From positions 196,876 through 260,875 of the forward strand of contig JAJDCB010000030.1 of assembly GCA_029261065.1 (NCBI GenBank): 64,000 bases of DNA, read 5' to 3'. The stretch comes from Candidatus Omnitrophota bacterium (lineage in GTDB: Bacteria > Omnitrophota > Gorgyraeia > Zapsychrales > Zapsychraceae). The stretch's first letter is position 1. Every line of letters starts with the position of its first letter. The position numbers and the translations under genes were made by a program. The notes beneath the pieces were generated by a model. That model worked only from the letters and a program-made list of their open reading frames with translations, had not been told where the DNA came from and made no database searches. Of the stretch, positions 6,189-26,107 are shown in pieces.

Positions 6189-7649
6189 ATGTATTATTTT
6201 AATCCATATGCTATTGGGCCGTTATTAACGGGAGTGATGTGTTTTGCTTTAGGGCAATATGTGCATCAGATGGATCGTGAAGATCGGACACGTCAGGCTT
6301 TTTTTGGTTTGAATGTGTTAGCGAGTCTTTGGTGTTTGAGTCAAGCGATGGTGTTAAGTGCTACAGATTTAACGTTAGCCAGCTTTTGGTCTCATGTTAT
6401 GTTCTCAGCCATCATCCTTATGCCTGTCAGCATGTTTCATTTGGCCAGTCATTGGTGTAAGAGATATCAACGACAAAAGCTTATTCGATGGGTGATAAAT
6501 TTTCAAGCCTTATGCCTTGTGATCTTAAGTTGGGGACCCGATTTTTTATCGGGATACACGCCATACTTTTTCGGTCTTTTTCCGCGAGCAGGTGCTTTGA
6601 TGTATTTAGTTGTTTTCTTTATGTTGTCTAATTTCACAATCAGTTTTTTAAACATTAATAAGTATCATTTTTCTCAAAAAAAATTAAAAAAAAGACAAGA
6701 AGCTCGTTTTGTGATGTTATCGTTCTTGATTCTTCTTTTAAGTTATTCGGATGTTTTTGTTAGTTATCAACAAAGTTTGTATCCTTTAGGTTATATTGTT
6801 CTCTTTGGATTTTCTTTAAGTATGTCATTGTTTCTTTTAAGAAAAAGTGTGGCTTTATTGCATGAGCGTGTAAGGAGTGTTGAGGAGCAAATGCAATTTA
6901 AATCTAATGAGGCATCTATAGTTTCTGAAGAACTGAAAGGCGTGCAGTTTCAGCTCTTGGAAGCTGGAAAAAAATCAGCATTAGTAAGTTTGAGTGCAGG
7001 AATCCTTCATCAAATTAGCCAACCTATTACAGCAATTTATGGGTTTATCAAATTTTTAAAAAAAGAGGTAAAAGAAGATCACGAGTTTTATAAGCCGATC
7101 CATCTGGTAGATGAGCAAACGATGTATTTAAAGCAGATGCTTGGAAATTTGATGGAGCTTGTGCAGCATAAAGATATAAAGAAGGAAGCTATTAATGTTA
7201 ATGAACCTGTAGAAAATGCTGTTAATTTATTAACGGATGAATTACGCATTGGACGGGTTAAGTGGGAGTTAGACCTAGCTGAGGATTTGCCTCAGATTTG
7301 TGCGGATAACATTAATCTTCAACAAATTTTCATGAACTTTATTATTAATGCCATTCAAGCCCTTGGAACGTTGCCCAAGGGGGAGGAGCGTCAGTTATTG
7401 GTGTCGAGTAAGGTTGATGAGGATAACAAATTTGTTGCAGTGTCTTTTCAAGATTCTGGTCCGGGGGTCAGTAAAGGAGAGGTGGAGCGGATATTTGAGC
7501 CGTTTTATTCTACGAAAGAAAAGGCTGTTGGGATTGGCTTAGCCCTTTGTCAGGATTTGGTTGAGGAGCATGGGGGGCAGATTTTGGTGGATTCAAGTGT
7601 TAAGCAGGGTGTTAGTTTTGTGGTGAAGTTGCCGGTGATTGGATCGTAA
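6189..7649 (+). CDS. sensor histidine kinase (membrane N-terminal domain, HisKA, HATPase_c)
   Basis: H-box LHQISQPITAIYGF; G-box region GIGLALCQDLVEEHGGQI; multi-TM N-terminus. Confidence 0.8.
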   Translation: MYYFNPYAIGPLLTGVMCFALGQYVHQMDREDRTRQAFFGLNVLASLWCLSQAMVLSATDLTLASFWSHVMFSAIILMPVSMFHLASHWCKRYQRQKLIRWVINFQALCLVILSWGPDFLSGYTPYFFGLFPRAGALMYLVVFFMLSNFTISFLNINKYHFSQKKLKKRQEARFVMLSFLILLLSYSDVFVSYQQSLYPLGYIVLFGFSLSMSLFLLRKSVALLHERVRSVEEQMQFKSNEASIVSEELKGVQFQLLEAGKKSALVSLSAGILHQISQPITAIYGFIKFLKKEVKEDHEFYKPIHLVDEQTMYLKQMLGNLMELVQHKDIKKEAINVNEPVENAVNLLTDELRIGRVKWELDLAEDLPQICADNINLQQIFMNFIINAIQALGTLPKGEERQLLVSSKVDEDNKFVAVSFQDSGPGVSKGEVERIFEPFYSTKEKAVGIGLALCQDLVEEHGGQILVDSSVKQGVSFVVKLPVIGS

Positions 7650-7689
7650 AGTATTGGAGTGTAGTTGTTTATGTGTAAGTTGTAGAAAT

Positions 7690-7772
7690 CATGTCGTCCC
7701 CGCGGAAGCGGAGATCCAATAATAGAAATATTATTACTTATTGGAGGTTCACGCTTCTGCGGGAATGACATG
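7690..7772. repeat. REP-like element family A (variant)
   Basis: GTCGTCCCCGCGGAAGCGGAGATC ... TCTGCGGGAATGACATG inverted pair. Confidence 0.75.
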
Positions 7773-7913
7773 TTTACTATGACACGATTACGATGACTTG
7801 TTTTAAGCGGATTATGTTGTATATTTAAAGTAGCACAAAGGGGGGATAAACCATTTAGGTTTATGCCCCTATTTTTTTGGATCTTAGGCTTGTTGCAATG
7901 TAAAGGACATCTA

Positions 7914-8291
7914 ATGGATAAGATCAATGTGTTAGTGGTGGATGATAAGAAAATTATTCGAGATCTCTTTGACTACATTTTGGGCTATCATGGTCATCAT
8001 ATTACGGCCGTCAGTAACGGTACGGATGCTATTGAGGCTGTGATTCAGAATCAGTTTGATGTTGTTTTTTTGGATATTGTGATGCCTGGAACGGATGGTG
8101 TTACGGTCCTTGAAAGGTTTAAAGAAATAAAACCCCAAATGCCGGTTGTCATGATGAGTGGCTATTCCGTAAAAGCTAAACAAGAGAGAGTTGCTGAGTT
8201 AGGAGCTGTGACGTGTCTTAGAAAGCCGTTTGAGATGGATGAGGTTGCTGAGGTTTTAAAGGTGGCTTTGGGTAAAGAGATTCAGGAATGA
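7914..8291 (+). CDS. single-domain response regulator (CheY-like receiver)
   Basis: MDKINVLVVDD...FDVVFLDIVMPGTDG...MSGY; start moved to ATG 7914. Confidence 0.8.
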   Translation: MDKINVLVVDDKKIIRDLFDYILGYHGHHITAVSNGTDAIEAVIQNQFDVVFLDIVMPGTDGVTVLERFKEIKPQMPVVMMSGYSVKAKQERVAELGAVTCLRKPFEMDEVAEVLKVALGKEIQE

Positions 8292-19158: not shown

Positions 19159-19614
19159 ATGTCAAGCGCTATTGCCACCAACAAAAAAGCTTTTCGCGAT
19201 TTTTTCCTCTCTGATAAATGGGAATGCGGGATTGCCCTTTTAGGTGGTGAGGTTAAATCCATTCGAGCCGGGCATGTCAATTTTAAAGATACCTTTGCTC
19301 GCATCGATAAAGGCGAGATCTTTCTTTATAACCTTCATATTGAGCAATATAACGCTGCCAGCCACATGAATAAAGAGCCGGATCGCGTGCGTAAACTTTT
19401 GATGCATAAGAAAGAAATTAAGCGTCTTGAAGGTAAACTAAATCAGCAGGTGGGAACGCTCATTCCAACGAAGATTTATTTTAATAAGCGAGGCTTAATT
19501 AAGGTTGAGATTGCCTTGGGACGAGGAAAGAAGCTTTATGATAAGCGTGAAGCGATTAAGAAGCGGGATGTGGATCGCCAGATTGGGCGGGAGATGCGTA
19601 ATCGGCGGGGGTGA
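19159..19614 (+). CDS. smpB: SsrA-binding protein
   Basis: GIALLGGEVKSIR...YNLHIEQY...KIYFNKRG pattern typical of SmpB; 151 aa. Confidence 0.9.
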   Translation: MSSAIATNKKAFRDFFLSDKWECGIALLGGEVKSIRAGHVNFKDTFARIDKGEIFLYNLHIEQYNAASHMNKEPDRVRKLLMHKKEIKRLEGKLNQQVGTLIPTKIYFNKRGLIKVEIALGRGKKLYDKREAIKKRDVDRQIGREMRNRRG

Positions 19615-22126: not shown

Positions 22127-22542
22127 GGGGGTGACATGGTTTCGACTTGGGTTATCGGAGTTTGAGTGGCATGCGGAGGACGTCTGGTTGGCCTCCTAAA
22201 AAATCCAGGCACACAATAAACGCTAACGATGAAACGTTGACGTTTGCTAGCTTGACTAATTCAACAATGGACAGCGATGTTCCTGTTGAACCATCACTAG
22301 CAACAGCACCAGCCTTATCGGTCTAATTCACTGGTAAGCCCTCTTGTAGCAGGCCTGTGGGTTACAAGTGGAACAAGCAGGCTGGTCTTATAAATTTGCT
22401 TCATTTATAAGATAAGATTTAGAAGCTAGTTTCATTTACGTTTGTTTATTTAGAGAAGTGAAGCGAAATTAAAAATAAACTAAGCATGTAGAAGCTCTTA
22501 CAAAGGAACCAAAGGACCGGGGTTCGATTCCCCGCACCTCCA
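22127..22542 (+). ncRNA. ssrA: tmRNA (transfer-messenger RNA)
   Basis: 5' GGGGGTGACATGGTTTCGAC and 3' GGACCGGGGTTCGATTCCCCGCACCTCCA (T-arm + acceptor) match tmRNA ends; tag frame starts GCT AAC GAT GAA (ANDE...) at 22222, stop at 22324. Confidence 0.85.
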
Positions 22543-22683
22543 TTTAGTTGTAGTGCATCTCCACCCCATTGAGGTGCATAGGCTTATGATAGTATATTGT
22601 TTTAATTCTCGATTGGTGCCCATTTAGTGCCCAAAGTATCACATTTTTCTTGCATTCATTCTATTGACTATTATAATAAACCC

Positions 22684-22893
22684 ATGAGTAAGATTTTTAA
22701 TCCTTTAAAAGATGTAGGTCGATTGATTGAGCCATTTCCTGGCGAATGGGTCACATTATCTTCTGATAAAAAGCAAGTTGTTGGGCATTCAAAAAAAATG
22801 GAAACAGCATTAAATCAAGCTTACAAAAAAGGCGTTGAACATCCTTTCCTTATTAAATCTCCTGATGGTAACATCGCTGCAGTCATCTATTGA
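22684..22893 (+). CDS. small DUF5678-like protein (cassette 1, gene A)
   Basis: GEWVTLSSDKKQVVGHSKKMETALNQAYKKG...P.LIKSP fits the DUF5678 pattern (recalled from memory); 64% identical paralog at 23661. Confidence 0.6.
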   Translation: MSKIFNPLKDVGRLIEPFPGEWVTLSSDKKQVVGHSKKMETALNQAYKKGVEHPFLIKSPDGNIAAVIY

Positions 22894-23333
22894 GTTATAT
22901 CACTCTCCCATATACAGAATTAGTTATTCCGGCAAAAAACAATAGGCCAAGAAAGATTGTTCGTCGTCCATTATTAAATACAAAATTATTTTATGGTAAG
23001 GCAGAAACGATGTTTGATTTTTCATCTCTTGTAGACTCTGGTGCCGATTTTTGTATCTTTCCTGCAAAGTATGGATCGATACTCGGGTTGGATGTTAAAA
23101 AAGCTCAATCAATTATGACTTATGGCATTGGTGGCCAAGAGACGATATATTTTCATAAAGTTAAGATAGGTGTGTTTATTGGAAATGAGATTTGGAAATT
23201 TACAGTCAAAGCTGGATTTTCTTATAGAATGAATATAGAAGGAACAGGCTTGCTTGGTCGCAAAGGTTTTTTTGATCAATTTAAAGAAATTGTATTTAAT
23301 CAAAAGAAAAAGATGTTTCGTATAATGGAATAA
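22890..23333 (+). CDS. retropepsin-like aspartic protease (cassette 1, gene B)
   Basis: LVDSGADFCIFP (D-S-G-A catalytic motif), GIGG flap-like, GLLGRKGFF; TTG start overlapping gene A stop (TTGA). Confidence 0.65.
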   Translation: MSYITLPYTELVIPAKNNRPRKIVRRPLLNTKLFYGKAETMFDFSSLVDSGADFCIFPAKYGSILGLDVKKAQSIMTYGIGGQETIYFHKVKIGVFIGNEIWKFTVKAGFSYRMNIEGTGLLGRKGFFDQFKEIVFNQKKKMFRIME

Positions 23334-23460
23334 TTTAGTGCCCAAACGGTGCCCATCTTACACCAAAACAACGGTAACGAACCGTAACCAAATGTAAACA
23401 ACCGCATAGTTTAAATTAGTTGTATTCGACGACAATTTAGTTAATCGGTTGATATTTATG

Positions 23461-23500
23461 GGGTTACACCGACGGGGATTATCGATTCCCCGTACCTCCA
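23461..23500 (+). repeat. tmRNA 3'-end-like fragment (T-arm + acceptor half)
   Basis: GGGTTACACCGACGGGGATTATCGATTCCCCGTACCTCCA vs tmRNA GGACCGGGGTTCGATTCCCCGCACCTCCA; similarity continues ~45 nt downstream. Confidence 0.8.
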
Positions 23501-23660
23501 TTTAGTTGAAGTGCATATCCATCCTGTTGCGATGTATAGACTTATGATTTCATAAAGTATTAATTTTCAATTGGTGCCCATTTAGTGCCCAAAAGTTATA
23601 GTAATTTCAATATGATTTATAATTGCAAACATTATAGTTTTGTAATATGATAAATTAATT

Positions 23661-23870
23661 ATGAAAAAGAAATTTATTCCTGAAAAAGATATGGCAGACG
23701 TTATACTCCCCTTTGCAGGGCAATGGGTCACGTTGTCGTCGGATAAGACGAAGGTTTTGGGGCATTCTAAAAAGATGGAAACCGCTTTAAACCAAGCCTA
23801 CAAAAAGGGTGAGAGTACACCACATTTAATCAAATCTCCAGATTCCAGCACCTCAGTATTTATTTTTTGA
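23661..23870 (+). CDS. small DUF5678-like protein (cassette 2, gene A)
   Basis: paralog of 22684..22893 (GQWVTLSSDKTKVLGHSKKMETALNQAYKKG). Confidence 0.6.
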   Translation: MKKKFIPEKDMADVILPFAGQWVTLSSDKTKVLGHSKKMETALNQAYKKGESTPHLIKSPDSSTSVFIF

Positions 23871-24310
23871 AAACACATACTTTACAATACACAAAACTAT
23901 CAATCCCCTCTCAAGGAAAAGTTCCAAAAAAGGAATTATACTGTCCTCTTTTAGATACTTTTTTATTTAACAAGTCTATTCAAACTCATTTTTCATTCAA
24001 ATCCATTGTTGATTCTGGAGCCGATTTTTGTGTGTTTCCTGAAAAGTTTGGAAAGTTGATTGGATTAGATGTTAAAGCTGGTGATAAAGTTTTAACTTTT
24101 GGTGTTGGTGGTATTGAGACACTTTATTTTCATAAAATTCAGATAGGGGTACATATTAAAGGTGAACTTTGGAAATTAGATTGTAAAGCTGGCTTTTCTG
24201 CAAAGCTAAATCCAAAAGGAATTGGTCTGCTTGGACGGAAAGGATTTTTTGATCAATTTGCAGAGATTGCCTTTAATCAAAATAAAAAAATGTTCCGTAT
24301 TAAAGAATAA
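23867..24310 (+). CDS. retropepsin-like aspartic protease (cassette 2, gene B)
   Basis: IVDSGADFCVFP, GVGG, GLLGRKGFF; TTG start overlapping stop, same as cassette 1. Confidence 0.65.
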   Translation: MKTHTLQYTKLSIPSQGKVPKKELYCPLLDTFLFNKSIQTHFSFKSIVDSGADFCVFPEKFGKLIGLDVKAGDKVLTFGVGGIETLYFHKIQIGVHIKGELWKLDCKAGFSAKLNPKGIGLLGRKGFFDQFAEIAFNQNKKMFRIKE

Positions 24311-24438
24311 TGTAGTGCCCAAATGGTGCCCATCTTACACCAAAACAACGGAAAACAACCGTACTCAAATGTAAACAATCGCACAGTTTAAATTAGTTGT
24401 TTCCGACGATATTTTAGTTAATTTGTTGATATTAATGA

Positions 24439-24477
24439 GGTTACAGCGACGGGGCTTATCGATTCCCCGCACCTCCA
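24439..24477 (+). repeat. tmRNA 3'-end-like fragment (third copy)
   Basis: GGTTACAGCGACGGGGCTTATCGATTCCCCGCACCTCCA. Confidence 0.8.
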
Positions 24478-24675
24478 CTTTGATTCGCTCAAATGCTTTC
24501 GCGTTTGAGCTACGCAGAAGTAAATTCTTACTCAGATCTAAAAGTTTGAGCGAGGCGAGTGCTTCTACGAAGCTCCAACACGAAAGTATTGGAGCGTAGT
24601 AGAGCGCTGCAGTTCAAGATTATTAATTGAACGAAGCCTAAAAAATTCAAATGGTTAAAAAGTAAGGGTGAAAAA

Positions 24676-25245
24676 ATGATAAAGAAAAGTCTTCTGATTA
24701 TAATTTTACTCATGATGATATGTCCTCGCACATCAGCTGAAAGTGTGCGTGAGCGATTAAGAAAAGCTCGGATGCCTAAGGATAGTACCCATGAAAATGA
24801 GACACCTAAAAAAGTAAAACAAAAGACTACTTCTCAAGAAAGTTTATTTGGAAAACCTTTCAACCCAAGTAAGATCGAATTTAGCCCTTATTATGCAGGG
24901 CAATTATTTTTTACCGAAATTAACGAAAAAGATCTGTCATCAAGGACTGTTAGTATTATCACCCTTATTGGTGCCCATAAAGATACATTCGAGGAGGAGA
25001 AAATTGCTAGTGAGAATCAGGTTTTCCAAAAATCTAATTCTAATACGGGGAATAAGGGTGGTGGCCTGACTTTAGTTAATAAAGGAAGAATAGTACCTAT
25101 TGAGGGAGATTGGGACGTGAAGGTATCTTTAGGAAAAGTTGAAAATAATAAGATATCAGGGCATATATTGATTACCGTACCTGAGCATAATACGAAGTTA
25201 AACAGAAATTTTATCGCAAATATAAAGCCTCGTCGAAAAGAATAG
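24676..25245 (+). CDS. secreted hypothetical protein (cassette 3 cargo)
   Basis: signal peptide then AESVRERLRKAR; ends before the third copy of the right-boundary motif. Confidence 0.55.
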   Translation: MIKKSLLIIILLMMICPRTSAESVRERLRKARMPKDSTHENETPKKVKQKTTSQESLFGKPFNPSKIEFSPYYAGQLFFTEINEKDLSSRTVSIITLIGAHKDTFEEEKIASENQVFQKSNSNTGNKGGGLTLVNKGRIVPIEGDWDVKVSLGKVENNKISGHILITVPEHNTKLNRNFIANIKPRRKE

Positions 25246-25582
25246 AAAACTGTTTTAGTGCCCCAAGGGTGCCCATCTTGCATCAAAACAACGGCATTTT
25301 AGTGTAACCAAATGTAAGCAACTGCGAAACGCCTCTCCTACATAATTCTTCCCCCCATAAGGCAGTCCCAAATAATTTTGATAGACGATTATCTAACATA
25401 ATAATCGTCAAACCACAGGTCATACTAAAAAGTATGGGCCTTGGGAGCTAAAGTTGTATATAATGTTTCAAGATAAAGTCAAAGACTATCAATTTGAAAA
25501 ACATTTAAAGTCCTATGCAGAAACGGCTTTTTTAAGAAAAAGATTAGTTTCAGGAATAAAAGGGCGAAGGAGTGTTAAGGTC

Positions 25583-26107
25583 ATGAAAAAATTATTATTA
25601 TGTGTATTAATTTTTAGTCTCACGACACCCACATTTGCTGAATCTATCAAAGAAAGGTTGAGAAAGACGCGAGAAAAAGAAAAGATGGGACTGGAAAAAA
25701 ATACTACAAGTAATAACTCTAAATTGAGAAGTAAACAGAAAAAACAAGAAACGTATGATCCTTATAAGAAAGAGGATGATGCGGTTATTCAAGAATTGCA
25801 AAAATCAGTTGATAAATCTTTAACGGATATGAAAAGAAGTGAAAAAGGTATGGTTAACGGTTTTGGCGAAACGACAGGCAATATTATTAGTAACACGGAA
25901 GAAATTCTAAAAGGAAAAAGTCTGGAAGATATTAATAGAATCAATGCAAAAATGGAACGACAATTTGAAGAAATGAAGAAGAAAGATAAAAAAGAGCGAA
26001 ATGAAAGAACTGAAAAGATGCTAGAGGATATGCGCAAAGATTCTAAACAGTGGCAGGAGCAGAATAAAGGAAAAAAGATGTCAGTTGAGAAAATATATGG
26101 CAAATAA
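25583..26107 (+). CDS. secreted Lys/Glu-rich protein, N-terminal paralog of 24676
   Basis: MKKLLLCVLIFSLTTPTFAESIKERLRKTREKEK; RBS AAGGAG; start moved from 25454 to ATG 25583. Confidence 0.5.
   Translation: MKKLLLCVLIFSLTTPTFAESIKERLRKTREKEKMGLEKNTTSNNSKLRSKQKKQETYDPYKKEDDAVIQELQKSVDKSLTDMKRSEKGMVNGFGETTGNIISNTEEILKGKSLEDINRINAKMERQFEEMKKKDKKERNERTEKMLEDMRKDSKQWQEQNKGKKMSVEKIYGK

Follow-up and report, generated by a model that had tools for sequence, protein, structure and literature searches.

The analysed stretch, hereafter the window, comprises 64,000 nucleotides (nt) of contig JAJDCB010000030.1 from Candidatus Omnitrophota bacterium (assembly GCA_029261065.1, forward-strand positions 196,876 to 260,875), and the locus under study is an array of small gene cassettes that directly follows ssrA, the gene for transfer-messenger RNA (tmRNA). 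The tmRNA gene was called at full length by Rfam (RF00023, 179.8 bits, model positions 1–374). Downstream of it lie two complete units of 958 bp (unit 1, 22524–23481) and 977 bp (unit 2, 23482–24459), followed by a third, partial unit (24478–25325). Each complete unit is ordered as core, P' arm, promoter region, two overlapping genes and P arm, after which the next core begins. The features of the array are listed below.

22127–22545, + strand: tmRNA gene (ssrA)
22525–22542, + strand: core copy 1, comprising the T-loop 3' half, the T-stem and the acceptor 3' strand of the tmRNA itself
22543–22635, + strand: P' arm of unit 1, with a hairpin-like stretch (~72 nt) followed by the L motif GGTGCCCATTTAGTGCCCAAA at 22615–22635
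~22651–22678: candidate promoter of gene A1, TTGCAT-16-TATAAT, as read from the sequence
22678–22893, + strand: gene A1, 71 amino acids (aa), weakly DUF5678-like (Pfam PF18929, E-value 0.0011, below the curated cutoff)
22890–23333, + strand: gene B1, 147 aa, predicted retropepsin-like aspartic protease, with a TTG start that overlaps the A1 stop
23336–23482, + strand: P arm of unit 1, with the R motif TAGTGCCCAAACGGTGCCCAT at 23336–23356
23483–23500, + strand: core copy 2, a displaced tmRNA 3' fragment (17/18, one mismatch)
23501–23593, + strand: P' arm of unit 2, with the L motif at 23573–23593
23623–23651: candidate promoter of gene A2, TTGCAA-17-TATGAT
23661–23870, + strand: gene A2, 69 aa, DUF5678-like
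23867–24310, + strand: gene B2, 147 aa, predicted retropepsin-like
24313–24459, + strand: P arm of unit 2, with the R motif at 24313–24333
24460–24477, + strand: core copy 3 (18/18, exact)
24487–24510: hairpin GCTCAAA...TTTGAGC, 3' of core copy 3
24676–25245, + strand: gene of the third unit, 189 aa, with a signal peptide
25254–25325, + strand: orphan P-arm stub, with a degenerate R motif TAGTGCCCCAAGGGTGCCCAT at 25256–25276 followed by ~50 conserved nt

The first-pass annotation had described three cassettes, each ending in a fragment that resembles the tmRNA 3' end. Alignment of the fragments defined an 18-nt att core, CGATTCCCCGCACCTCCA, of which a pattern search returned three copies in the 64 kb, compared with ~0.02 expected by chance. 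The two displaced copies fall inside the fragments originally placed at 23461–23500 and 24439–24477 and close the first two cassettes as described, whereas the third ends in a degenerate motif plus ~50 nt of flank. The array therefore consists of two complete units and one partial unit rather than three equivalent cassettes. The conserved flanks that had been noted were recovered as a 72-nt block, termed D3, at 23334, 24311 and 25254, and as a 112-nt block after the tmRNA end that recurs after the first fragment. A longer repeat, D1, relates 23208–23503 to 24185–24480 at 83% identity.

When the tmRNA was aligned with both fragments, identity extended from inside the T-loop to the acceptor end, and each unit was seen to furnish a new tmRNA 3' end. 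Upstream of the point where identity starts, the fragments resemble one another (CGACGGGGnTTAT) and not the tmRNA, as expected if a P arm brought in by the element abuts a displaced core. The tmRNA gene acts as attB, and together with the sequence 3' of it as attL. An intact tmRNA gene with displaced 3' fragments in direct orientation is what the Islander definition of an island at a tRNA or tmRNA gene (tDNA) describes, save that the integrase gene expected within such an island is absent. The earlier proposal that elements without an integrase were inserted site-specifically, one after another, at the 3' end of ssrA is supported by this T-loop-to-acceptor identity, by arms that resemble those of phage attP sites and by the lack of tyrosine and serine recombinases in the window.

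In both the R and the L motifs, two direct GTGCCCA half-sites lie 11 nt apart, and every half-site has the same strand orientation. The distance from the first nucleotide of the R pair to the start of the core is 147 nt, and the L pair begins 73 nt downstream of the core. Three occurrences of the R motif TAGTGCCCAAAnGGTGCCCAT and two of the L motif (at 22615 and 23573) were found in the window, with zero expected by chance in either case. The R motif begins 2 nt after the gene B stop, and the ~126 nt that separate it from the next core are conserved. Segments 23336–23500 and 23501–23593 together form an attP-like junction that measures 236 nt from the R pair to the L pair. In phage attP sites of the lambda type, the core has the sequence of attB, the P and P' arms on either side carry arm-type repeats in direct tandem orientation, spaced by roughly one turn of the helix, and the entire site spans ~240–260 bp. 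In the window, the cores match attB at 18/18 and 17/18 positions and tandem direct repeats of arm type flank the core on both sides. The resemblance covers the core and the two-arm direct repeats, and the difference is that the integrase and any Xis are missing there.

Other interpretations of these sequences were considered. A site of the dif/Xer or attC type was ruled out, as no inverted half-sites are present in any locus. A reverse-strand sigma-54 promoter, suggested by GG-N10-GC spacing, was dropped by eye because the reverse strand carries no gene and the −12 element is poor. The only literature match to GTGCCCAAA was to the AcaCD boxes of SGI1, which are palindromic and unrelated. Considered as a structured nucleic acid, the segment that spans both arms folded no better than shuffled sequences (DNA fold z-score −1.64), and a scan for terminators yielded two hits, compared with 2.5 expected from shuffles, neither of them at a core or arm.

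Five viral contigs (L029, L035, L038, L040 and L041) carry two GTGCCCA pairs, 187–249 nt apart, around a tRNA-like 3' half, and the 236 nt measured in the window fall within this range. The second pair of L040 reads GTGCCCG, and L041 has a G+C content of 67%. In eight of 14 viral loci, the integrase gene ends at or over the motif, as determined with a profile built from the L029 integrase (PF00589). This two-pair geometry around a tRNA-like core, next to a tyrosine integrase, corresponds to an intact attP. The C-terminal tail of the integrase is encoded across the P' pair, reading GHQMGT in L029, GHQTGT in L040 and GHGLGT in L041. The L motif of the window at 22615–22635 reads GH*MGT on the reverse strand, which looks like the ghost of a lost integrase gene. 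The linked integrases have N-termini that resemble arm-binding domains by eye, although Pfam made no such call. No matches were obtained when viral sequences were scanned with an extended form of D3 or with the exact L motif, and a GTGCCCA arm consensus in connection with attP and integrase was not met in one full-text literature search. The P arm of L029 also contains, at 2415–2440, direct repeats of CCAAATGAGA that lie between its GTGCCCA pair and the core and may be recognised by a second protein, for example Xis.

A metagenome scan for exact matches to the R motif yielded 17 loci, 15 of them distinct, and a 3' fragment of tmRNA or tRNA-Pro was found at +150–170 nt from the motif in 9–10 of the distinct loci. 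The fragments are of a tmRNA type (…GCACCTCCA) or a tRNA-Pro type (…ATCGAATCCCGCCTTCCCGACCA), and the intervening sequence shares the internal blocks TCGACGnnATTT and TTGCAAATAA. The same P arm precedes the fragments at the far end of metagenome islands that range from 0.8 to >7 kb. In L015, motif and fragment mark the distal end of an island that is at least 6 kb long and has a Phage_integrase gene. In L011, a 1-kb unit with a single NYN gene lies between a tmRNA and its motif and fragment, and in L013 a BrnT/CopG-antitoxin pair occupies the same position after tRNA-Pro(CGG). The genes found just 5' of the motif encode HicA, BrnT, CopG antitoxin, PIN and NYN proteins, as well as a split NTP_transf_8, M78/ImmA, DUF4238 and DUF7689.

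In a further locus (L026), an integrase island with different arm repeats is followed by a 1.7-kb unit of the GTGCCCA type, bounded on one side by a pair with one degenerate half-site (TGGTGCCCAAAAGGTGTCCAT at 6726) and on the other by an exact pair. Within 6300–8130 of that contig, ATGGTGGTAAAA occurs twice right after the integrase stop together with a tmRNA core, and the GTGCCCA-type mini-element, which directly follows the integrase island, ends in an identical core. Two integrase arm types thus share one ssrA core. Another contig (L019) has three motifs with a core after the first only. In its oriented form, positions 700–2400 contain HicB-like/HicA, membrane-protein and BrnT cassettes, each bounded by the R motif plus CGGAATCACAAA; the tRNA-Pro core follows the first motif alone, which gives the locus an integron-like look. 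Finally, oriented L018 contains at ~1894–2000 a copy of the window D3 block with the same breakpoint (...AAATGTAAACAACCGC) and no core. This copy sits upstream of a cspA thermoregulator and gene, and a promoter-like site, TTGCAA-17-TAAAAT, follows it.

Comparison of units 1 and 2 revealed an uneven distribution of conservation. Identity amounts to 94% in the core, 76% in the P'-arm stretch between core and L motif, 100% in the L motif, 95% in the R motif and 87% in the remaining P arm, against 40% in the promoter region, 59% in gene A and 65% in gene B. Third codon positions of the cargo are 45–55% identical and so near saturation. The inner edge of the L motif is the precise point at which homology between the units breaks off; it restarts within the last ~125 nt of gene B. 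In a neighbour-joining tree calculated without support values, each protease is nearer to another organism's protein (69% and 66% identity) than to its neighbour in the array (63%). Non-coding flanks that are much better conserved than saturated cargo, together with closer relatives of that cargo elsewhere, speak against duplication in situ followed by drift. As judged from the sequences, this pattern argues for cis sites that are under constraint or have been homogenised.

Taken together, units 1 and 2 are probably non-autonomous mini-elements, similar to cis-mobilisable elements (CIMEs), which would have been inserted successively at the T-loop/acceptor core of ssrA by a family integrase from elsewhere. 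Each unit would represent the attP scaffold of a heterobivalent, phage-type tyrosine integrase, from which everything except a two-gene cargo was lost. The integrase would act in trans, encoded outside the window on a phage or island of the family that resides in the same cell, and would recombine the element core with the T-loop/acceptor segment of ssrA. The incoming element would furnish a new tmRNA 3' end and push the older copy downstream, so that two insertion events would yield a tandem array in which the units are older the further they lie from ssrA. To move between cells, a unit would have to be co-excised with a helper or packaged by it, as in CIME-type accretion. The third unit would stem from an earlier insertion, after which the P' sites, the core and most of the P arm were lost. 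The cargo of the complete units would be translationally coupled, expressed from its own candidate promoter, and might function as an addiction or defence-type module. The first-pass annotation had offered two options, a decayed multi-island or integrase-less elements mobilised in trans; units 1 and 2, with intact arms and cores that are better kept than their cargo, lean towards service in trans, and decay fits the third unit.

Several points weigh against this proposal. The GTGCCCA pairs are read as arm-type sites, bound by the integrase N-terminal domain, from the positions that they occupy in phage attP sites, and the similarity of the arms could also be explained by gene conversion between adjacent copies. 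The helper integrase was not found in the 64 kb or in ~3 kb of flanks. No excision, empty site or polymorphism was seen; the locus has a single independent assembly, Logan contig L003, and this is identical and unbroken across all three cores. The invariance of the motif among metagenome matches is partly built into an exact-match search, a bias outside which the linked cores and the second motif copies lie. The mini-elements of L011 and L013 lack recognisable P' pairs, as would more readily be expected of passive deletion remnants than of a class that propagates. Lastly, the DUF5678/retropepsin pair is present at nine other loci, all without GTGCCCA arms or tmRNA cores, so the combination of this cargo with this scaffold is known only here.

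The searches behind the negative results were as follows. Six-frame translation of the window, queried with four tyrosine recombinases, the family profile and one serine recombinase, revealed no tyrosine or serine recombinase, in agreement with the earlier statement that no integrase is encoded nearby. No integrase was found on the flank-extension contigs, which are short, and a terminal-overlap test on short contigs found no circles. The window proteins that were tested form single-member clusters at 90% identity, so the collection holds no sister strains. A 730-aa protein encoded upstream has relatives in four genomes only, at 39–42% identity (Omnitrophota and 'Planctomycetales' metagenome-assembled genomes), and no tmRNA lies nearby in any of them; synteny around ssrA is thus not shared with these genomes.

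The strongest alternative, which we regard as unlikely, is that two or three full-size prophages or islands once inserted at ssrA were reduced by deletion to their att ends and addiction-type genes, and persist as immobile scars kept by useful or addictive cargo. The absence of an integrase from the window, the GH*MGT ghost of an integrase C-terminus in the L motif and the lack of observed polymorphism are all compatible with such scars. So are the full-size relatives L015 and L029, the retention of the attR side alone in L011 and L013, and the stepwise decay visible in L019 and in the third unit of the window. Against this, both units are equally clean in architecture and carry no integrase pseudogene. 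Four arm pairs and their cores remain intact beside cargo that is saturated at synonymous positions, whereas neutral scars should decay as the third unit has done. Moreover, two independent deletions would be needed, 42 and 67 nt beyond the P' pair, each of which would have had to leave related and rare cargo.

A more ambitious reading, which we consider doubtful, is that of a phage-integrase-driven cassette platform. The tRNA and tmRNA genes of several uncultured lineages would collect arrays of 0.7–1.7-kb cassettes with toxin-antitoxin (TA) or defence genes between GTGCCCA pairs, and integrases encoded elsewhere would insert, excise and exchange them. Such a platform would be a functional integron analogue built on lambda-type att sites, with DUF5678 plus retropepsin as a new addiction or defence module.

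Rather less probable is a platform in which the GTGCCCA pairs themselves bound exchangeable cassettes, as in integrons, with the ssrA core as an anchor only and cargo inserted, deleted and shuffled by recombination at or near the pairs, which would be either integrase-mediated or homologous between 21-bp direct repeats. The abrupt loss of homology at the L motif's inner edge, the restart inside gene B before the R motif and a cargo that is less related than the scaffold would suit it, as would the cassettes that carry a motif and no core at L019 (three motifs), L013, L018 and the third unit of the window. Cargo rich in TA genes is likewise typical of integron arrays and of arrays of pdif modules, with which the units also share sizes of 0.7–1.7 kb, short conserved sites and a recombinase located elsewhere. 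The known crossover sites of tyrosine and serine recombinases are inverted repeats, whereas the half-sites are direct in every locus and never inverted. No attC-like hairpin is present, as the fold z-score given above indicates, nor is an inverted site of the XerC/D type, and the attC plus IntI integrase combination that defines an integron cassette was not found. In the phages, furthermore, the pairs occupy arm-site positions on both sides of a tRNA-like core, so that the units have direct repeats as arm sites around a tRNA-derived core, and the motif-only junctions can be explained by deletion. Tandem duplication in situ of one mini-element, by unequal crossing-over between cores and subsequent divergence, would account for adjacent units of like architecture with a rare cargo family, yet it is very improbable given non-coding arms at 87–100% beside third codon positions at 45–55%, the opposite of drift after duplication, and given the position of each protease in the neighbour-joining tree, which has no support values.

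Among known systems, the closest to the mini-elements proposed here are CIMEs. Those described so far span several kb and derive from integrative and conjugative elements, whereas the units are <1 kb, have an attP of phage-type origin, contain a two-gene module only, and reside at ssrA in an uncultured lineage. Like CIMEs, they are flanked by att sites of an autonomous family (the phage attP arms and the attR of the L015 island), lack genes for recombination, conjugation, transfer or mobilisation, stand in tandem at one site, and are proposed to move with a helper integrase. CIMEs and their accretion at tDNA sites in the Streptococcus ICESt1/3 family have been reviewed (PMC5704250). In Dehalococcoides, tandem arrays of islands downstream of ssrA have direct repeats of its 3' end and a crossover in the T-loop, and 15 of these islands, which have no integration module, have been proposed as CIMEs (PMC3146451). 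Those islands depend on the serine recombinase DsiB and a 20-bp repeat and carry multi-kb rdhA cargo, in contrast to the ~1-kb units with a tyrosine-integrase attP and arm sites described here. In Prochlorococcus, repeated integration of tycheposons at tRNA and tmRNA genes pushes older elements inward (bioRxiv 10.1101/2020.12.28.424599), and stacking and remnants at such genes are also documented for Islander tDNA islands (PMC4383910). Partial tRNA fragments and degenerate remnants are common to those arrays and to the present one. Tycheposons and Islander elements are, however, defined by their integrase and measure 10–20 kb, so the far smaller units would fail such detection. What is new in comparison is the extreme reduction to ~1 kb while both arms of the att scaffold remain complete, the recurrence in metagenomes of such mini-elements with addiction-type cargo, and the GTGCCCA arm signature.

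The earlier count of one or two small genes per cassette was borne out, with two in each complete unit and one in the third. Gene B encodes a retropepsin-like aspartic protease according to its active-site motif, a G-R-[DN]-like motif and its predicted fold. DSGAD and GLLGR are invariant across 11 homologues, B2 is 58% (BLASTP) to 63% (alignment) identical to B1, and Pfam scores are under the cutoffs. The AlphaFold2 model of B1 has a predicted local distance difference test score of 86.9. It was matched by Foldseek to 5c9f with an E-value of 1e-5, and the top matches, the Rickettsia retropepsin-like protease APRc and the proteases of feline and human immunodeficiency viruses, have a probability of 1.00. 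The cargo protein family is rare, with 15 proteins in 5.8 billion. The two genes overlap at their stop and start codons behind a candidate promoter of their own and have no Pfam match to TA families. Our guess that they form an addiction/TA or defence-type module comes from the company of related cassettes, since those before the motif elsewhere hold HicA, BrnT, CopG antitoxin, PIN, NYN and NTase genes. On a separate 909-bp contig (L004), the DUF5678/retropepsin pair lies between TTTGTAATTTGTAGTTTG on the left (1–120) and AATCACAAATCACAAATCACAAATTACA on the right (780–909), flanks that could be repeat sites of another type of recombinase.

In the third unit, the features of a complete unit are gone save for the degenerate motif and ~50 nt of P arm. 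Its 72-nt block (25254–25325) shares 82% identity with the corresponding blocks of the first two cassettes, and beyond it the sequences diverge; no core was found 3' of the stub, and the sequence beyond 25325 contains only a poor T-arm-like stretch, as judged by eye. The orphan R motif is bracketed by the genes at 24676–25245 and 25571–26107, both of which encode a signal peptide. Their products are paralogous, with the N-terminus AES[VI][RK]ERLRK[AT]R in common and 33% identity over 73 aa. As this N-terminus is shared with the next gene, 24676–25245 may be either cargo of the third cassette or a host gene. The hairpin at 24487–24510 may be the original ssrA terminator or belong to the P' side of the third unit. 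As to ssrA itself, smpB (19159–19614) lies 2.5 kb upstream of it. An ARAGORN run on the window missed the tmRNA that Rfam calls. The sole long tag-like frame in the tag region (~22221–22326) reads ANDETLTFASLTNSTMDSDVPVEPSLATAPALSV*, which would be unusually long for a tag, and the CCA end is absent from the DNA.

If the units are fixed scars, they would represent an ordinary, if neat, case of island decay at ssrA. If mobilisation in trans does occur, hardly any smaller integrative element would be known than these, which consist of an att scaffold and one small operon, and island finders that require an integrase would be blind to them. GTGCCCA pairs on both sides of a core derived from a tRNA identify the attP, attL and attR sites of a broad integrase family in hosts of 34–67% G+C, and this signature may be used for mapping island ends and predicting the arm specificity of integrases. 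Mobilisation in trans would further imply that addiction and defence genes ride a phage integrase family at essential RNA genes of uncultured bacteria.

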